6,831 nt of DNA from a virus (Duplodnaviria > Heunggongvirae > Uroviricota > Caudoviricetes): positions 1-6,831 of IMG/VR virus record IMGVR_UViG_2565956635_000006; one strand, 5' to 3'. The notes beneath the pieces are model-generated. The model saw only the letters and a program-made list of their open reading frames with translations, was not told where the DNA came from and ran no database searches. The position numbers and the translations under genes were made by a program. Of this stretch, positions 1 to 6,377 are shown one piece after another (the first letter of the stretch is position 1; each line of letters opens with the position of its first letter).

Positions 1-516
1 ATGAAATTTAAAAAATGTCTTCTGCCTGTGGCAATGTTAGCGTCATTCACTCTGGCAGGATGCCAGTCAAATGCTGATGATCATGCTGCCGATGTTTATC
101 AAACCGATCAACTGAATACCAAACAAGAAACTAAAACCGTTAATATTATTTCCATTCTTCCCGCAAAAGTTGCCGTAGACAACGCCCAAAATAAACGGAA
201 CGCACAAGCCTTCGGCGCGCTTATTGGCGCTGTCGCTGGCGGTGTTATCGGCCACAACGTCGGGTCTGGCAGCAATTCCGGAACGACGGCAGGTGCAGTT
301 GGCGGCGGAGCTGTAGGCGCGGCAGCGGGTTCGATGGTGAATGATAAAACCTTAGTGGAAGGTGTTTCTTTAACATATAAGGAAGGCACCAAAGTGTATA
401 CCTCCACCCAGGTGGGTAAAGAGTGCCAGTTTACGACAGGTTTAGCCGTTGTTATTACCACGACGTATAACGAAACGCGTATTCAGCCAAATACCAAATG
501 TCCTGAAAAGAGCTAA
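1..516 (+). CDS. Outer-membrane lipoprotein with glycine-zipper domain (YcfJ / Rick_17kDa_Anti-like), 171 aa
   Basis: ATG at window position 1, stop TAA 514-516. Signal peptide MKFKKCLLPVAMLASFTLAG|C with lipobox LAGC; residue after the Cys is Gln, not Asp, so outer-membrane sorting is expected. Gly/Ala zipper GALIGAVAGGVIGHNVGSGS...GAVGGGAVGAAAGS resembles the GAVAGGVIGH motif of YcfJ-type lipoproteins (from memory). Upstream RBS lies outside the window. Confidence 0.7.
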   Translation: MKFKKCLLPVAMLASFTLAGCQSNADDHAADVYQTDQLNTKQETKTVNIISILPAKVAVDNAQNKRNAQAFGALIGAVAGGVIGHNVGSGSNSGTTAGAVGGGAVGAAAGSMVNDKTLVEGVSLTYKEGTKVYTSTQVGKECQFTTGLAVVITTTYNETRIQPNTKCPEKS

Positions 517-531
517 TAATCAGGAGGAGTC

Positions 532-1071
532 ATGAAGAAAGTTTTTCTTTGCGCCATCTTAGCCTCCTTAAGCTATCCGGCTATCGCCTCATCATTGCAG
601 GATCAACTCTCGGCTGTCGCAGAAGCGGAACAGCAAGGTAAAAATGAAGAGCAAAGGCAGCATGACGAATGGGTCGCGGAGCGCAACAGGGAAATCCAGC
701 AAGAGAAGCAACGTCGCGCAAACGCCCAGGCCGCGGCTAATAAAAGAGCGGCAACGGCAGCGGCGAATAAGAAAGCTCGTCAGGATAAACTGGACGCCGA
801 AGCCACTGCGGACAAAAAACGCGATCAAAGTTATGAAGATGAGCTACGCAGCTTAGAGATTCAGAAACAAAAACTGGCGCTGGCGAAAGAAGAAGCCCGC
901 GTCAAGCGCGAAAACGAATTTATCGATCAGGAACTGAAGCACAAAGCTGCGCAAACCGATGTGGTGCAATCTGAAGCTGACGCAAACAGAAATATGACTG
1001 AAGGCGGTCGCGATCTGATGAAAAGCGTGGGTAAAGCAGAAGAGAACAAATCGGACAGCTGGTTTAACTAA
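532..1071 (+). CDS. Secreted/periplasmic coiled-coil protein, Ala/Lys/Glu/Gln-rich (TolA domain II-like composition), 179 aa
   Basis: Consensus SD AGGAGG at 522-527, 4 nt before ATG 532; only 15 nt after the upstream stop, so it is operonic with the lipoprotein. Sec signal peptide MKKVFLCAILASLSYPAIA|SS (AxA cleavage site). The mature part is highly charged with AAANK(R/K)A-type repeats. Family unknown. Confidence 0.65.
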   Translation: MKKVFLCAILASLSYPAIASSLQDQLSAVAEAEQQGKNEEQRQHDEWVAERNREIQQEKQRRANAQAAANKRAATAAANKKARQDKLDAEATADKKRDQSYEDELRSLEIQKQKLALAKEEARVKRENEFIDQELKHKAAQTDVVQSEADANRNMTEGGRDLMKSVGKAEENKSDSWFN

Positions 1072-1109
1072 GCGATGTCAGTAACTTCAAGCCTATGATT
1101 CGTGAGTAT

Positions 1110-1140
1110 AAAAAACCCTCTGTAGTAACAGAGGGTTTTG
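1110..1140. terminator. Bidirectional rho-independent terminator shared by the convergent plus-strand operon and the minus-strand lysis operon
   Basis: Perfect inverted repeat aaaaccctctg (1112-1122) / cagagggtttt (1129-1139) with a 6-nt loop tagtaa. The GC core stem CCCTCTG/CAGAGGG is flanked by an A-tract on one side and a T-tract on the other, so the hairpin is followed by a U-run in both transcripts (UUUUG on plus, UUUUUUAUAC on minus). It lies 41 nt after the stop of the 532-1071 gene and 128 nt after the Rz stop. Confidence 0.65.
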
Positions 1141-1266
1141 TTCATTCATAGTGCAGGGTTCAAATCATTCCCACTCAATTATTTACGACATACATAACCA
1201 ATTGACTGATAACAACTTTCTGCAGCCTGATTTTCACCGTACCGTTTTATATACCGTCACCAAAAA

Positions 1267-1764
1267 TCAGTACCACGATTTTTGCTTCTTCAGTGAATCG
1301 TATTGCTGTTCGCAGGATTCTCCTGCAATCCGATACTTTTCAGCCTCAGCTGCTGTTGCGTTGTAAACTCGGTTGCTTTCTTCAAGCATGTCGGCGAGCA
1401 CACCGATGACCTTGCTGGCTGGCGTGCCAGTGGGGAAAGATCCGGTATAGTGTTCGGCGAGTCGCTTGGTTTTGTCAAGCTCGGCGCGCAGGCTGTCAGC
1501 AGCGGCATTAGCATGCTCAGCATCAACACGCGCCACATCGATACGGGATTGTGCTTCACGTTCAATTTGTGTTTTCTCCTGATCACGTTGTGACCTGGCC
1601 TTATCATCAGCCTGTTTCTGATCTTCCTGTGCCTGCGCATACCCGGCGTCGTACTGACGACTGCCGTGTGCATTCCAGGCTACAACTCCTGATATGACCA
1701 GAACAGCAAGCATCGCCATGATAACCAACTGTTTCCTGTATGCTTTTGCGAATGCCCAGATCAT
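1267..1764 (-). CDS. Rz-like i-spanin (inner-membrane spanin subunit), 165 aa
   Basis: ATG at 1764-1762 overlaps the endolysin stop TGA at 1763-1761 (ATGA overlap, translational coupling). Type II membrane topology: basic N-terminus [12 protein letters not shown] followed by one [20 protein letters not shown], then a long charged coiled-coil periplasmic domain rich in Q/E/R/D/A. Last gene of the lysis cassette and carries an embedded lipoprotein ORF. Confidence 0.75.
1290..1538 (-). CDS. Rz1-like o-spanin (outer-membrane lipoprotein) embedded in the +1 frame of the i-spanin gene, about 82 aa precursor
   Basis: Fully embedded alternative frame inside 1267-1764. Encodes [16 protein letters not shown]|C with lipobox LTAC followed by a Pro/Ser-rich mature region ([24 protein letters not shown]...) with extra Cys, the hallmark of Rz1 proteins. 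Start is uncertain: in-frame ATGs at 1538, 1523, 1514 and 1508, none with a strong SD. Confidence 0.5.
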   Translation of the reverse strand: MWRVLMLSMLMPLLTACAPSLTKPSDSPNTIPDLSPLARQPARSSVCSPTCLKKATEFTTQQQLRLKSIGLQENPANSNTIH

Positions 1765-2390
1765 ACCGCCAGCACCTTACTGGCAGTGATGTATCGCGCG
1801 CGCCGGTCATCAATGCCGTTCCGGCCACCATTGATAAGCAGAGTTACACGTGCAATATCTCCGGTATACTTCATGCAGCCTTTGCTGGAGAAGAACCACG
1901 CCGCGCTACGAGCCGCGTATTCGTCCTGCGCCAGCAGTTCAGGACTCTCCAGCAGGTCAACCTTAAGACCGTTTCCACAGTCACGATAGTTATTCAAACC
2001 GGTAATCTGGATAAGTCCGCGCCCACGGTAGTTCCAGCCATCGCCAGGAGCATTGTTACCCATGCGTTTGCTGTACACCAGATTGGCAATCGCTCTCTGG
2101 CGCTCAGGTGGCAATGGTGGTTCGCCTGCGCGTCGCCCCAATGCGTTGGCCTGTCCCTGAGTGAGACGCCCAGCCCGAACAAAGTTAGCCAGTCCGCTGA
2201 CGCTGTAGTTGAAATTTTCCTGCAACCGGGTGAAACCTCCAGACTCATGCCCGACCTGAGCAATAAACATTGCCTGATCTTCTGGTTTGCTGATACCAAA
2301 CTCTTTCATCGCAGAAGTTATATGCGAGAACCAGCGTGCGGCCAGCGCCTCGCTAATACCAGCAGCTCGCTGGAATTGTTTAATCTCCAT
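1761..2390 (-). CDS. Phage endolysin, glycoside hydrolase family 19 (chitinase-fold lysozyme), 209 aa
   Basis: Start ATG at 2390-2388 preceded by SD GAGGT (minus-strand context TCGAGGTCTAAACATGGAG). The 264-aa ORF in the track is a 5' over-extension; the upstream part overlaps the holin-like gene in another frame. Protein begins [20 protein letters not shown] and contains [10 protein letters not shown]...LQENFNYS with two Glu (positions 49 and 58) plus [12 protein letters not shown], consistent with GH19 phage endolysins of the SPN1S type (from memory). GC is about 58-67% in hand-counted 60-nt blocks. Confidence 0.85.
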
Positions 2391-2688
2391 GTTTAGACCT
2401 CGATACTTTGAAAATTTGAACGACGTTACCGCGCGTTTTAATAACCGCAGCGAGCATGACAGCGTTGATAATGACCTCAGATAAATCCACAGCCATTGGC
2501 GTGCGGAACCAGATTGCATAGGCGACACGAACAGGAATACTGGCCGCAGCAACAATCAGGAAATAAGCAAGCCATCCTCCCCACCTTCGGTGTTGAGAGC
2601 CGTTACGCCGGAATGTGACAACGCGAATTGCTATGCCAGTGCAAATAACTGCATTGGTGATAAGCAAAAAAAACTCATGCGTTACCAT
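2380..2688 (-). CDS. Holin-like / lysis-associated small membrane protein, 102 aa
   Basis: ATG at 2688-2686 with SD GGAG 8 nt upstream (GGGGAGAAAAGACGATG). Overlaps the upstream gene by 14 nt and the endolysin start by 11 nt. Two hydrophobic segments ([19 protein letters not shown]; [23 protein letters not shown]) separated by a basic loop, and a charged C-terminal tail KVSRSKHGD, which is holin-like architecture. Position immediately 5' of the endolysin. Confidence 0.6.
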
Positions 2689-3079
2689 CGTCTTTTCTCC
2701 CCGGAATTAACTCGCGTGGATTATCGGAACGGTGATAGAGCCATATACCAATACGCACAGCGACAATTGCTGACACGAATGCGCCTGCAGAGAAAACAAT
2801 CCCTTTTTCAAAAGAGTCCTGCGTGATGGTAGGGATCAGGCTGGCTATGCCGATAAGAATTGATGCTGCTGGTTTGTAAAAGAGAAGGCCGCAAAGAAAG
2901 CTGAGCATCGACAGGAGCACCCGGCGACGGATGGGGTACTCTACTGCAGAGGTAACAAAAATTACCGCTCCAGCCAAAGCACCCAAAGCAACCTCAGGAG
3001 GAACTCCTGCTATCACCGCCGCCAGAGAACTCATGCTAAGCCACTGATTTAAAGTTTCACTGGTTAGTTGAGCTGACAT
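2675..3079 (-). CDS. Holin-like membrane protein (3-4 predicted TM segments, charged C-terminal tail), 134 aa
   Basis: Start taken at ATG 3079-3077 (MSAQLTSETLNQ...) with upstream GGTGG 5 nt away; the track's start at 3088 is a GTG three codons upstream in the same frame. Hydrophobic segments LAAVIAGVPPEVALGALAGAVIFV, LLSMLSFLCGLLFY, ILIGIASLIPTI, AGAFVSAIVAVRIGIWLY, then charged tail [19 protein letters not shown]. First gene of the tightly overlapped lysis cassette. Confidence 0.55.
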   Translation of the reverse strand: MSAQLTSETLNQWLSMSSLAAVIAGVPPEVALGALAGAVIFVTSAVEYPIRRRVLLSMLSFLCGLLFYKPAASILIGIASLIPTITQDSFEKGIVFSAGAFVSAIVAVRIGIWLYHRSDNPRELIPGRKDDGNA

Positions 3080-3253
3080 GTTTTCCACCGTTTATATGCA
3101 TAACAACCTCCTGAACAGTAAAGCATTACGCATGATAAACCATTTATGGTTTTTTGTTACTTTAACATCGTCAATTCCCTGTTTTTCATGCCGAGAATAA
3201 AGCTCACCTTTTACATGACTCTGAAGAAACAAACAGTGAAGATCAGGTTGAAT

Positions 3254-3276
3254 ACCGCACCATTTAATGGCGCGGT
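3254..3276 (-). other. Stem-loop just after the stop of the small membrane gene (possible weak terminator or RNA stability element)
   Basis: Minus-strand ACCGCGCCAT-TAA-ATGGTGCGGT: 10-bp stem with one G-U wobble and a 3-nt loop, 6 nt after the TGA at 3284-3282. No U-tract follows, so it is not a canonical intrinsic terminator. Confidence 0.25.
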
Positions 3277-3281
3277 AGCAG

Positions 3282-3566
3282 TCAAATAGAGAAATAAACA
3301 CAAAAACAAAAAACAACAGGAACAGCAAAATCCAACAGACTTCCCACATCCCACACGCGTGGATCAAAACCTCCCCACCACGGCATGTTGATGCGTTTCC
3401 CTTTCCCAAACTTTTCTATCCAGCGATATTCTGCCTGGGTGTGTTCACGCGCAATGAAGAACGTACAACCGGCTATCGCACCGTAAGCCCAGTTTCCGGT
3501 AGAAAGGCCAACCAGTATCTGCGCAATAACCGCGCATACTGCATGTGTTATTGGTGTTGTATCCAT
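3282..3566 (-). CDS. Small integral membrane protein of unknown function (2 predicted TM), 94 aa, immediately downstream of the tailspike
   Basis: Start ATG 3566-3564 with SD AAGGA (AAAAGGATAAAAATATG); the track's start at 3602 abuts the tailspike stop and lacks an SD. TM1 AVCAVIAQILVGLSTGNWAYGAIAGCTFFIA, basic/aromatic loop REHTQAEYRWIEKFGKGKRINMPWWGGFDPRVW, TM2 LLDFAVPVVFCFCVYFSI. A weak hairpin follows the stop (see 3254-3276). Confidence 0.5.
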   Translation of the reverse strand: MDTTPITHAVCAVIAQILVGLSTGNWAYGAIAGCTFFIAREHTQAEYRWIEKFGKGKRINMPWWGGFDPRVWDVGSLLDFAVPVVFCFCVYFSI

Positions 3567-3602
3567 ATTTTTATCCTTTTTTAATTTAGCAAATTGATAC
3601 AA

Positions 3603-6377
3603 TTACACTCCTGATACTTCAATAGATAGTTGAATCTTATTTGGCATCTTGTTGCTTAAATATATGGTTGCAAAGTCAAACGAAATATTTAAGTTATTTT
3701 CATCACCATCATTATCTGAAAGAACTCCGGTTTTCAATACAACATTTTGCTTATTAATTTCTTTTAAAGGAGAAAAATCAGATCGGTCACCACGATGAAT
3801 AATAACACCAACTGCAATTACCCCATGAATATCAAGTATGTCGTGCATATCAAGGCGAACACATGGTACGTATCCACCAACAAGGATACTTGTAGATTTG
3901 TTGGCTTCAAGTGTTATTAGATATTTTCCGTCTGGTTGAACTATTGTTCCTGCTATTCCATCTGGCGTGTTGAACATACCGCAGTATCTGTATCCTGCTC
4001 CAACAGGAACAATTCTGTTACCGCCAAGATCATGGAAATTTCGAACAATTATTGCACCAGGAACAGATGAATAAACCATTACTGCCTCTGTTTGCCCTGA
4101 TACAGAGTCTGATGTTTCTGGGTTCGCCATGCATAAATTACCACCAAAATAAATATTTTGGATTAGAGGGGTGAGGCCATCATTAACCTCAAAACGTAAA
4201 AAGCCCTTGAGAACAGTCCTTGCGGTATTATTCTTAATAACAACAGGAAGTTCTTTATAGTAAGAGTTTCTGTCTGTCTGTGCCAGAGTTGTTTCAATAA
4301 AAACAAGAGGTCTGTGATTACGTTGAGTTGCATTCACAGGTTTGTACCTCAAGTTGTATGGCAAAGACATCTCAGTAAAACCATCAATATAATTACAGTT
4401 CTGAATCGTGAACCCACCACCACTATATCTTACAAAAAAAGGAGCCGGGCCGCTAAATCCCCTGACGTTCATTCCATCATACACTTCATTTAATCCGCGT
4501 ATTACACCAGCATAATACAAATTGACTGAATTGCCGCCTGTAAAAGTTGTTTCGTATGATGGGCCGTGTCCACCGCAACATGAATTTCTTGTATCGCCAT
4601 CAGGGAAAAATTTAACTCCATCATATGCAGTTCCACCACCCATCATCGTTGGATTTATAATGTTATTATACAGTGATACCATTTGAGTCCCGCTTACATC
4701 AAGCCCCCTCCTGCAAGCAAATGCTGTCATATCCACGACTGTGCAATAGCTGCTATTGTATATTTCAACACCATAACCAGTGCCGTTTGTTAAATCATAT
4801 GCACGGTTTGAGTATTCAATATATGGTTCTATTATTTTCGTTCTGTAGCTTGACTCAAGAAAAATTCCAGTTTCTGAAAAGCCGATTAGTTTTATTCCTT
4901 CTATATGCATATCAACAGCGCCATCTATCACAAGACCACGGAACCCCAAATCACCAGGAGATGCGTTCTGCGTGACAGGTCTTTCAAAATTGAAATCACC
5001 GACAATTCTGCCGTAGCATGGTTTTCTTTTATATATATTTGCCTTTCTTGTGATTTTAAACTCGTCTCCAACAGATGGTTTAAACGGGAATGGTCCCTGA
5101 GCATATTCAAATTTTGCTGTTTTAGTGTCGTAATCCCAATGAGTTATGTATCTTGATATTCCGGCGTTAGCTCCGGTGACACCTGTTACTTTTACCTGAT
5201 TGTATTGTTTTGTTAATGTTGCATCATTACCAAATGAGAATTCACCTCCGGATACAGATGCTGTTACGGTCGTTGAGTAATCATTGCTCGCAGAGTAGAA
5301 AAAATAAAATGCACCTGATATCTCCGCTTTTTTTGTTGCATTATCAAAAGCAGTAACAACATGCATTTCACCTTCACAAGCCTGTCCTCTATTATCTGTC
5401 TGAATTAAGCGATTGCCATGAATCATAATTATATCGCCTGCATCAACAGAATATGCTGAGTTAATTGATATTGATGTGTCACCAGGATTTATTGTTGAAT
5501 TATAGTCAATTGGCGTGGCATCTCCACCTTCGAGTCTTATGAAATAATCATCAATCCAGTTTGGACCAAGAGGCTCTTTTGCGGTTGACTTTAAGACAAC
5601 CTTGCCATCAGCTACCCAGTCATAGTTATAATTATCCCCGCCGCATTTTATGCGGCTAATCAAATACACACCAGAATCCCACTTCAGGCGTTTTCCGTTA
5701 GATGCGCAGTAAATGATGGCATTTGTTATTGCGTCTGTATCGTCAGTAATGCCATCCCCTTTTGCACCAAAATCGCGAACATTGACGATATCCCGCATCT
5801 TATCCTGGAACGTTCGATATACTGCCCCAAAACCATACTGAATAAACCAACCAAAACCACCAACAACCCCGGCGATTGCAGCATCGACATAATTACGCAT
5901 TGAGCGATTATTTACAGCATCCTGCTCAAGTGATGGATCTGCAAGGTTAGAAATTCTGTTTTGCTTTGCATCGTAATATTTTGCAAGCAAAGATGGTTTC
6001 ATCAATGCACGTCTGAACCACCCAAAACATCGCTGGATCAGCATCGTCAGGTAGTCAAATGCATCCTCATGAACTTCGGGGAAAAATTTTCCCTGATTGC
6101 GAAGATCAGTCTCCTGCACCACATCAAGCACACGCTCTATCGTGATTTTCCAGCCAGCAGCAAGCGGCGACGGAAGAACAACAGAACCGCCACTATAAGT
6201 GCCCGCCCCAGTTACCGTATAACCGGTATCCAGAACCAATTCTGTTACGTTACCGTTCAGGTCAGACACCTGAACAACCAGGTCTGTTTTTTTGAAAATG
6301 CGGAAGGTATACGGAAATGATGTCGTAACGCCGTTACCTGTGTATTCGTTGTGGTCAACTTCGGTTGAGACCGTCAT
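3603..6377 (-). CDS. Phage tailspike protein: conserved N-terminal particle-binding domain plus right-handed beta-helix (pectate-lyase-like) polysaccharide depolymerase / receptor-binding domain, 924 aa
   Basis: ATG 6377-6375 with SD GGAG 7 nt upstream (TCTGGAGATTTAACATG); stop TAA 3605-3603. N-terminus MTVSTEVDHNEYTGNGVTTSFPYTFRIFKKTDLVVQV...ETDLRNQGKFFPEVHEDAFDYLTMLIQR matches, from memory, the conserved head-binding domain of epsilon15/phiV10-type tailspikes. Residues about 199-222 (NVRDFGAKGDGITDDTDAITNAI) are the classic pectate-lyase-superfamily motif. Marked GC drop in the C-terminal two thirds. Confidence 0.9.
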   Translation of the reverse strand: MTVSTEVDHNEYTGNGVTTSFPYTFRIFKKTDLVVQVSDLNGNVTELVLDTGYTVTGAGTYSGGSVVLPSPLAAGWKITIERVLDVVQETDLRNQGKFFPEVHEDAFDYLTMLIQRCFGWFRRALMKPSLLAKYYDAKQNRISNLADPSLEQDAVNNRSMRNYVDAAIAGVVGGFGWFIQYGFGAVYRTFQDKMRDIVNVRDFGAKGDGITDDTDAITNAIIYCASNGKRLKWDSGVYLISRIKCGGDNYNYDWVADGKVVLKSTAKEPLGPNWIDDYFIRLEGGDATPIDYNSTINPGDTSISINSAYSVDAGDIIMIHGNRLIQTDNRGQACEGEMHVVTAFDNATKKAEISGAFYFFYSASNDYSTTVTASVSGGEFSFGNDATLTKQYNQVKVTGVTGANAGISRYITHWDYDTKTAKFEYAQGPFPFKPSVGDEFKITRKANIYKRKPCYGRIVGDFNFERPVTQNASPGDLGFRGLVIDGAVDMHIEGIKLIGFSETGIFLESSYRTKIIEPYIEYSNRAYDLTNGTGYGVEIYNSSYCTVVDMTAFACRRGLDVSGTQMVSLYNNIINPTMMGGGTAYDGVKFFPDGDTRNSCCGGHGPSYETTFTGGNSVNLYYAGVIRGLNEVYDGMNVRGFSGPAPFFVRYSGGGFTIQNCNYIDGFTEMSLPYNLRYKPVNATQRNHRPLVFIETTLAQTDRNSYYKELPVVIKNNTARTVLKGFLRFEVNDGLTPLIQNIYFGGNLCMANPETSDSVSGQTEAVMVYSSVPGAIIVRNFHDLGGNRIVPVGAGYRYCGMFNTPDGIAGTIVQPDGKYLITLEANKSTSILVGGYVPCVRLDMHDILDIHGVIAVGVIIHRGDRSDFSPLKEINKQNVVLKTGVLSDNDGDENNLNISFDFATIYLSNKMPNKIQLSIEVSGV

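Follow-up and report, generated by a model that had tools for sequence, protein, structure and literature searches.

The first 1,266 nucleotides of the DNA analysed here (a stretch of 6,831 nucleotides, hereafter the window) almost certainly represent the int-distal attachment-site junction (attR) of a prophage of the Uetakevirus group, similar to phiV10 and epsilon15, that lies at the 3' end of guaA in the Escherichia coli chromosome, with the two genes that open the window, yfgH and yfgI, belonging to the host core genome. The tyrosine-integrase system of the phiV10/epsilon15 family uses a 17-bp core, AATCATTCCCACTCAAT, and a single exact copy of this core is found in the window (0.01 expected). 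A sequence-only reading of the same DNA had proposed that the two genes are a lysogenic-conversion moron, and had kept as a fallback that the prophage ends somewhere in 1072-1266 and that they are host envelope genes. It is the fallback that stood up.

Two host genes beside the prophage

The leftmost features of the window are as follows.

1-516, plus strand: host gene yfgH, encoding an outer-membrane glycine-zipper (SlyB-like) lipoprotein; annotated as yfgH in E. coli K-12 and in the lysogen HB37
522-527, plus strand: AGGAGG, the ribosome-binding site of yfgI as read from the sequence, inside the 15-nt spacer between yfgH and yfgI
532-1071, plus strand: host gene yfgI, encoding a secreted DUF5384 protein; annotated as yfgI in K-12 and HB37

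The earlier description of a two-gene unit, with a glycine-zipper lipoprotein at 1-516 and a signal-bearing protein at 532-1071, agrees with the open reading frames, the domain match and the lipobox. In the annotation of both K-12 and HB37, yfgH starts 3 nt ahead of the window, its first codon being just outside. The N-terminus of YfgH is a signal peptide with the lipobox LAGC at its end, as read from the sequence, and the protein matches the glycine-zipper 2TM domain of Pfam (PF05433, E 4.8e-8, above its cutoff) and, among PDB sequences, the structure of the SlyB lipoprotein (7ojf, E 4.5e-10); its NCBIfam matches are all sub-threshold. YfgI begins with a signal sequence (…AIA/SS) and matches DUF5384 over its full length (PF17358, E 4.1e-62, 209 bits against a gathering cutoff of 25). 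It had also been labelled a TolA-like coiled-coil protein, a label that we withdraw: no TolA model is found among its Pfam matches, NCBIfam gives zero matches of any kind, and there is no match among PDB sequences at E of 0.1 or below that would lend structural support. As far as these sequence comparisons go, the resemblance of YfgI to TolA is compositional only.

Of 5426 complete E. coli genomes, 5422 have the yfgHI region, annotated as yfgH and yfgI, in a search with positions 1-1300 of the window. K-12 MG1655, which is free of the prophage, has the gene order pdeF, yfgG, yfgH, yfgI and then the convergent guaA, 92 bp beyond yfgI. The window genes are 98-100% identical to these E. coli genes of the YfgH/SlyB family and of DUF5384, and lie in the same chromosomal context; there is no difference between the two sets, and they are the same genes. 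The pair is also found together in other species of Escherichia and in Shigella, Citrobacter, Pantoea, Xenorhabdus, a Pseudomonas and a Haemophilus. In Escherichia, guaA is adjacent to the pair, and at one Citrobacter locus it is about 2.7 kb away. YfgH has been described as a glycine-zipper lipoprotein that stabilises the outer membrane under envelope stress (bioRxiv 10.64898/2025.12.22.696046), and yfgHI has been treated as one locus, its orthologues in S. Typhi, srgIL, being called an operon (PMC11619404). YfgI is the conserved DUF5384 partner of YfgH. Both yfgH and yfgI belong to the host core genome and simply happen to adjoin an attachment site on the chromosome.

The attachment site and the exact boundary

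The 195-bp gap between yfgI and the first phage gene (1072-1266) is made up of host DNA, the att core and a phage arm, in that order.

1072-1162, no strand: the B' side of the junction, host DNA from between yfgI and guaA, which aligns collinearly with the empty site of K-12
1112-1139, no strand: bidirectional intrinsic terminator hairpin of yfgI/guaA, with a 12-bp stem in folds of both strands
1163-1179, no strand: the 17-bp att core AATCATTCCCACTCAAT, reverse-complementary to the core published as attgagtgggaatgatt (PMC9782041)
1180-1266, no strand: phage arm of attR (the lysis-side attP arm), collinear with attP of phiV10, Tyrion and epsilon15
1240-1260, minus strand: 21-nt block GTGACGGTATATAAAACGGTA, invariant in an alignment of four phages
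1251-1260, minus strand: predicted integrase arm-type site GTGACGGTAT, inside the 21-nt block

The published sequence attgagtgggaatgatt is the att core of phiV10, epsilon15 and vB_EcoP_ZX5, experimentally verified as the attP/attB core, and for ZX5 both integration and excision at the guaA site have been shown by PCR and sequencing of attB, attL and attR (PMC9782041). Read on the minus strand, 1165-1179 is ATT GAG TGG GAA TGA, the last four codons of guaA and its stop codon (the product ends in ...ATIEWE*), and the core spans two further bases past the stop. At the unoccupied site of K-12 the core lies at 6957-6973 of the extracted locus (L001), where it overlaps the guaA stop at 6959 and adjoins yfgI.

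Comparison with a prophage-free relative had been proposed as a way of finding the boundary, and it located both the att site and the boundary. The window is collinear with the empty K-12 site through the yfgI stop and the hairpin up to position 1179, and from 1180 onwards the two are unrelated; phage genomes, for their part, begin to match the window at 1162-1164. Within 1072-1162 a few substitutions and one additional base separate the window from K-12, and most E. coli genomes are about 95% identical to the window in this segment. The core is present in all four sites, with the following flanks.

attB (K-12): left flank cagggtca, core, right flank ggtagctgg
attP (phiV10): left flank tagctgtt, core, right flank tatttacgg
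attR (window): left flank cagggttca, core, right flank tatttacga
attL (HB37 lysogen, not the window): left flank tagctgtt, core, right flank agtcgctgg

These flanks show the exchange expected of site-specific recombination. We assign the window junction to the int-distal end because virion-derived relatives run in the order spanins, attP, terminator, int; the name attR follows the lambda convention and the ZX5 paper.

The sequence-only reading also held that the two genes share a bidirectional terminator with the spanin genes. The hairpin exists: it consists of AAAACCCTCTGT-AGTA-ACAGAGGGTTTT with T-runs in both directions, the folding z-score of 1072-1160 is -4.2, and in the lysogen the phage spanin genes lie upstream of it. 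As a phage feature the claim does not hold, since the hairpin is identical in K-12 and is the host yfgI/guaA terminator. A scan for consensus terminators did not report it, probably because the A and T runs pair and lengthen the stem, a limit of the stem and tail rules of the scan.

As to the phage arm, GTGACGGTAT carries a protein_bind annotation for integrase on each arm in the RefSeq record of epsilon15, and the motif is likewise repeated in both attP arms of phiV10. Because the count of the ACGGTA hexamer across the window is not significant by itself, the claim of an arm-type site is based on the annotation of the epsilon15 record together with the 21-nt invariant block; more generally, the functions of the arm site and of the IHF sites are predicted from that record and from conservation.

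The phage side and its relatives

Beyond the phage arm, the window continues with the lysis genes.

1267-1764, minus strand: i-spanin of the Rz type (DUF2514), encoded last in the lysis cassette (PF10721, E 1.6e-21; phrog_312, E 9e-51)
1290-1538, minus strand: o-spanin (Rz1-like lipoprotein, lipobox LTAC), embedded in the i-spanin gene (phrog_11621, E 2e-25)
1761-2390, minus strand: GH19 endolysin (PF00182; phrog_181, E 2e-91; HB37 annotation)
2380-2688 and 2675-3088, minus strand: two holin-family genes (PF05449, E 4e-27, and PF16931, E 4e-12; phrog_217 and phrog_198)

The Pfam and PHROG matches bear out the earlier statement that spanin genes converge on the genes at 1-1071, and an equivalent embedded o-spanin gene is annotated in phiV10 and epsilon15. 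After the holins come a small membrane ORF and a tailspike of 924 aa. The window shares the order of tailspike, holins, endolysin, spanins and att with the Uetakevirus phages phiV10, epsilon15 and ZX5. In these three, the att site is at the 3' end of guaA; the window has the identical core, the same target and the same phage arm with GTGACGGTAT, and nothing in its junction is different from theirs. The differences from phiV10 and TL-2011b are found in the body of the tailspike and in the small membrane ORF, which occupies the place of their O-acetyltransferase gene.

The window holds one prophage end only, and the other end was seen in the near-identical lysogen HB37, which is 98.4% identical to the whole window and 99.9% identical over 1-1300. 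There the order is guaA, core, tyrosine integrase, an epsilon15-like gene set, tailspike, holins, endolysin, spanins, core and yfgI. The sequence-only reading had suggested looking for a direct repeat at the other prophage end, and HB37 provides it: two core copies lie about 39.5 kb apart, the second between guaA (1578 bp, intact) and the gene for a P4-type tyrosine integrase. The genomes of phiV10, Tyrion and epsilon15, which derive from virions, have attP, a terminator and int directly after the spanin/Rz genes and carry no lipoprotein gene or other extra gene there.

How often is the site occupied? With positions 1120-1266 as the query and at least 80% of it covered, 549 of the 5426 complete E. 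coli genomes, or about 10%, have a prophage at this site, and the remaining genomes match only the 60 host nucleotides of the query, under guaA, which is the pattern of an empty site. A longer junction query (1080-1380) was covered in 182 genomes, which is an undercount because Rz varies between prophages. The whole window, this tailspike included, is covered in only eight genomes.

A phage record that overruns its attachment site

Both host proteins match PHROG families over their full length, YfgH and YfgI finding phrog_1277, which bears the label "DNA methyltransferase", and phrog_1094. TL-2011b is the only phage with yfgHI among 50,697 phage records and appears there twice, as the GenBank and the RefSeq copy. 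TL-2011b belongs to the same prophage family and occupies the same site as the window prophage. Its record starts about 190 bp before int, directly after the expected position of the attL core, and a complete phage follows; at its right end it overruns the attR core by about 3.5 kb, taking in yfgI, yfgH, yfgG and a fragment of pdeF. The host pair is in TL-2011b because the record runs past attR into host DNA, and the RefSeq annotation of the record names YfgH "DNA methyltransferase". It is probably this over-extended record that seeded the PHROG families of YfgH and YfgI.

The PHROG matches were considered as a sign of phage origin and rejected on these grounds. We also considered whether TL-2011b might be a genome produced by aberrant excision (of the transducing type), and rejected this as well: its int end is complete, and no compensating loss accompanies the host DNA.

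Other explanations of the junction

In lambda, bor is a lipoprotein moron that lies downstream of Rz on the opposite strand. The position and orientation of yfgHI relative to the spanin genes are like those of bor, and the sequence-only reading preferred, on this basis, to see a bor-like lysogenic-conversion moron expressed from the prophage. Several further observations point the same way: YfgH is an outer-membrane lipoprotein that weakly resembles TraT, a lipoprotein of serum resistance (28.1 bits where the cutoff is 31; PDB 9fs5, E 0.038), the two PHROG families match both proteins from end to end, and the TL-2011b record holds both genes. We nevertheless give this explanation practically no credence. 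The likeness to bor is one of position only, that is, of a lipoprotein gene convergent to spanin genes. The two genes have no sequence relationship: the Bor family is absent among the Pfam matches of YfgH at E of 0.01 or below, and BLASTP of YfgH against lambda Bor returned nothing at E of 100 or below. Moreover, yfgHI lies outside the att core, on the host side; it occupies the same locus in genomes without the prophage, K-12 among them, a finding that the sequence-only reading had itself named as a refutation, and only some 549 of the 5426 have the site occupied; and it is absent from the genomes that derive from virions (phiV10, Tyrion and epsilon15) and, among the 50,697 phage records, from all but the over-extended TL-2011b. 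Lysogeny of ZX5 at the guaA site left serum sensitivity unchanged (PMC9782041). As host core neighbours of the att site, yfgH and yfgI are therefore not lysogenic-conversion genes.

The pair might still be ancient mobile cargo, either a domesticated moron or a product of specialised transduction, that became fixed beside the att hot spot at guaA. The orthologues are patchy in Salmonella, srgIL being present in Typhi and absent from Typhimurium (PMC11619404); the yfgI-guaA interval is variable in Escherichia, with an acyltransferase gene at one locus (L013) and an extra ORF of 234 aa at another (L012); and the pair directly adjoins an active att site. Against this, the pair occurs in many genera with no guaA within the fetched flank, its GC content of 47-50% is host-like, no att-like repeat was found on its far side within the window (the DNA upstream of yfgH being outside), and, the overrun of TL-2011b apart, no phage genome among the 50,697 records carries it. 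We consider such an origin highly improbable. A different doubt concerns the prophage itself, which could be a decayed remnant instead of a complete, excisable element: the window shows just 5.7 kb of phage DNA, non-phage or partial insertions occur in this interval at some Escherichia loci, and in KC-Dl-1 the corresponding region contains a further insertion of some 3.3 kb. This, too, seems unlikely, as all the visible phage ORFs (spanins, endolysin, holins and tailspike) are intact, the core and the predicted arm site are unmutated, and HB37, the closest lysogen, has a full-length element of about 39.5 kb with its integrase. We accordingly retain the view that window 1-1266 is the attR junction of a Uetakevirus prophage next to host core genes.

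Integration and a possible exchange of terminators

Integration would proceed by Int-mediated recombination of attP with the 3' end of guaA inside the core; the arm-type site at 1251-1260 would assist, and so would IHF sites of the kind annotated in epsilon15. The gene guaA would stay intact because the phage brings an identical guaA end. In the lysogen, the host terminator at 1112-1139 would terminate both the yfgHI transcript and the late (lysis) transcript of the phage, and would keep these two convergent units apart.

The phage has a similar hairpin of its own. On the int side of attP, it carries a hairpin with 10-nt stem arms, AACCCTCTGT and ACAGAGGGTT, that match the arms of the host guaA/yfgI terminator exactly, the loop being different and the spacer longer. 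In the free phage, this hairpin follows the spanin genes, and it is annotated as a terminator in phiV10 and epsilon15; in the lysogen, it follows guaA. The arrangement suggests that terminators are swapped at integration, with guaA receiving the phage copy and the late operon receiving the bidirectional host terminator, and that this may be a selected design, a proposal drawn from the hairpin sequences that we regard as possible rather than probable.

What do these observations mean? The host genes, the phage family, the attachment site and the core sequence are all already known; the value of the analysis is chiefly one of annotation hygiene, and its biology is not new. The prophage boundary is now set to the base, by the core at 1163-1179, and two host genes are struck from the list of candidate phage morons, a reading into which automated pipelines could be misled by the presence of host proteins in phage families. 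The true variable cargo slot of this phage family lies between the tailspike and the holins, where ORF 3282-3602 is the candidate conversion gene. The terminator swap is the sole mildly new angle. If it is true, both guaA, which serves an essential pathway, and the phage late operon would be correctly terminated in both states, the host terminator would also shield yfgHI from antisense late transcription, and the attP region would originally have been captured from a host guaA 3' region.

Terminator Hairpins on Both Sides of the Integration Event

The prophage family carries its own copy of the hairpin that terminates transcription between host guaA and yfgI. The hairpins compared are as follows.

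L006 (phiV10) 1782-1805: phage copy, on the int side of attP
L005 (E. coli lysogen HB37, attL side) 7893-7916: phage copy
Window 1114-1137: host guaA/yfgI terminator

In a sequence comparison, the 10-nt stem arms of the phage hairpin, AACCCTCTGT and ACAGAGGGTT, are the same as those of the host terminator. The copies differ in the loop, which in guaA orientation reads TTTT in the phage and TACT in the host, and in the spacer between core and hairpin, which is longer in the phage. Because the stem arms are identical, guaA and the phage late operon would exchange equivalent terminators upon integration, and the comparison suggests that the attP region was at some time captured from host DNA. Within window 1072-1160, a simple terminator scanner called nothing at the very clear 1112-1139 hairpin, likely because base pairing between the A run and the T run on either side uses up the T-tail; the absence of terminator calls by this scanner should not be over-read.

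The interval between yfgI and guaA differs among other Escherichia.

L013 (Escherichia sp. E1V33) 4742-5881: acyltransferase-like membrane protein, 379 aa, directly after yfgI
L012 (E. whittamii) 4564-5268: extra 234-aa ORF between yfgI and guaA

In the E1V33 locus, guaA was not found within 4 kb, nor was the exact att core found. These genes may be what is left of further elements that inserted into this hot spot or close to it.

Host Genes yfgH and yfgI in Phage Databases

Two PHROG families, phrog_1277 and phrog_1094, match host YfgH and YfgI (window 1-516 and 532-1071) over their full length; phrog_1277 is labelled “DNA methyltransferase”, the name that YfgH also bears in the RefSeq annotation of Escherichia phage TL-2011b. 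The record of that phage (NC_019445.1; L004 1-3534) extends about 3.5 kb beyond attR. This looks like database contamination, and such entries could misdirect automated prophage annotation. YfgH itself resembles SlyB. It also shows a weak similarity to TraT, a lipoprotein of complement resistance, that stays below threshold (28.1 bits in Pfam, where the cutoff is 31; E 0.038 for PDB 9fs5); this hints at a fold common to these outer-membrane lipoproteins.

Variable Regions of the Prophage

The top whole-window match, strain KC-Dl-1 (NZ_CP063046.1 3815188-3825335, hit H77; 99.0%), is 10.1 kb long instead of 6.8 kb and contains features annotated “AAA family ATPase” and “response regulator”; the equivalent prophage region thus has about 3.3 kb of inserted DNA in this strain. 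Two features of the window itself are relevant here.

Window 3603-6377, minus strand: tailspike, 924 aa
Window 3282-3602 (within 3089-3602), minus strand: small protein of 94-106 aa, predicted to be membrane-bound; phrog_1443

The N-terminal adaptor of the tailspike (about residues 1-230) is widely shared and matches many PHROG tail families, and the body is a pectate-lyase/beta-helix module of low GC (33-41%). Among 5426 complete E. coli genomes there are just 8 in which at least 80% of the whole window is covered; the receptor-binding module of this window is therefore rare, and it has probably been exchanged horizontally.

ORF 3282-3602 lies between the tailspike and the holins; phrog_1443 has no assigned function, and a Pfam search with the product gave no match. 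At exactly this position, phiV10 and TL-2011b instead carry an O-antigen O-acetyltransferase gene. As a candidate moron, this ORF is preferable to yfgHI, and the tailspike-holin interval is the real variable, or conversion, slot of the phiV10/epsilon15-like family.
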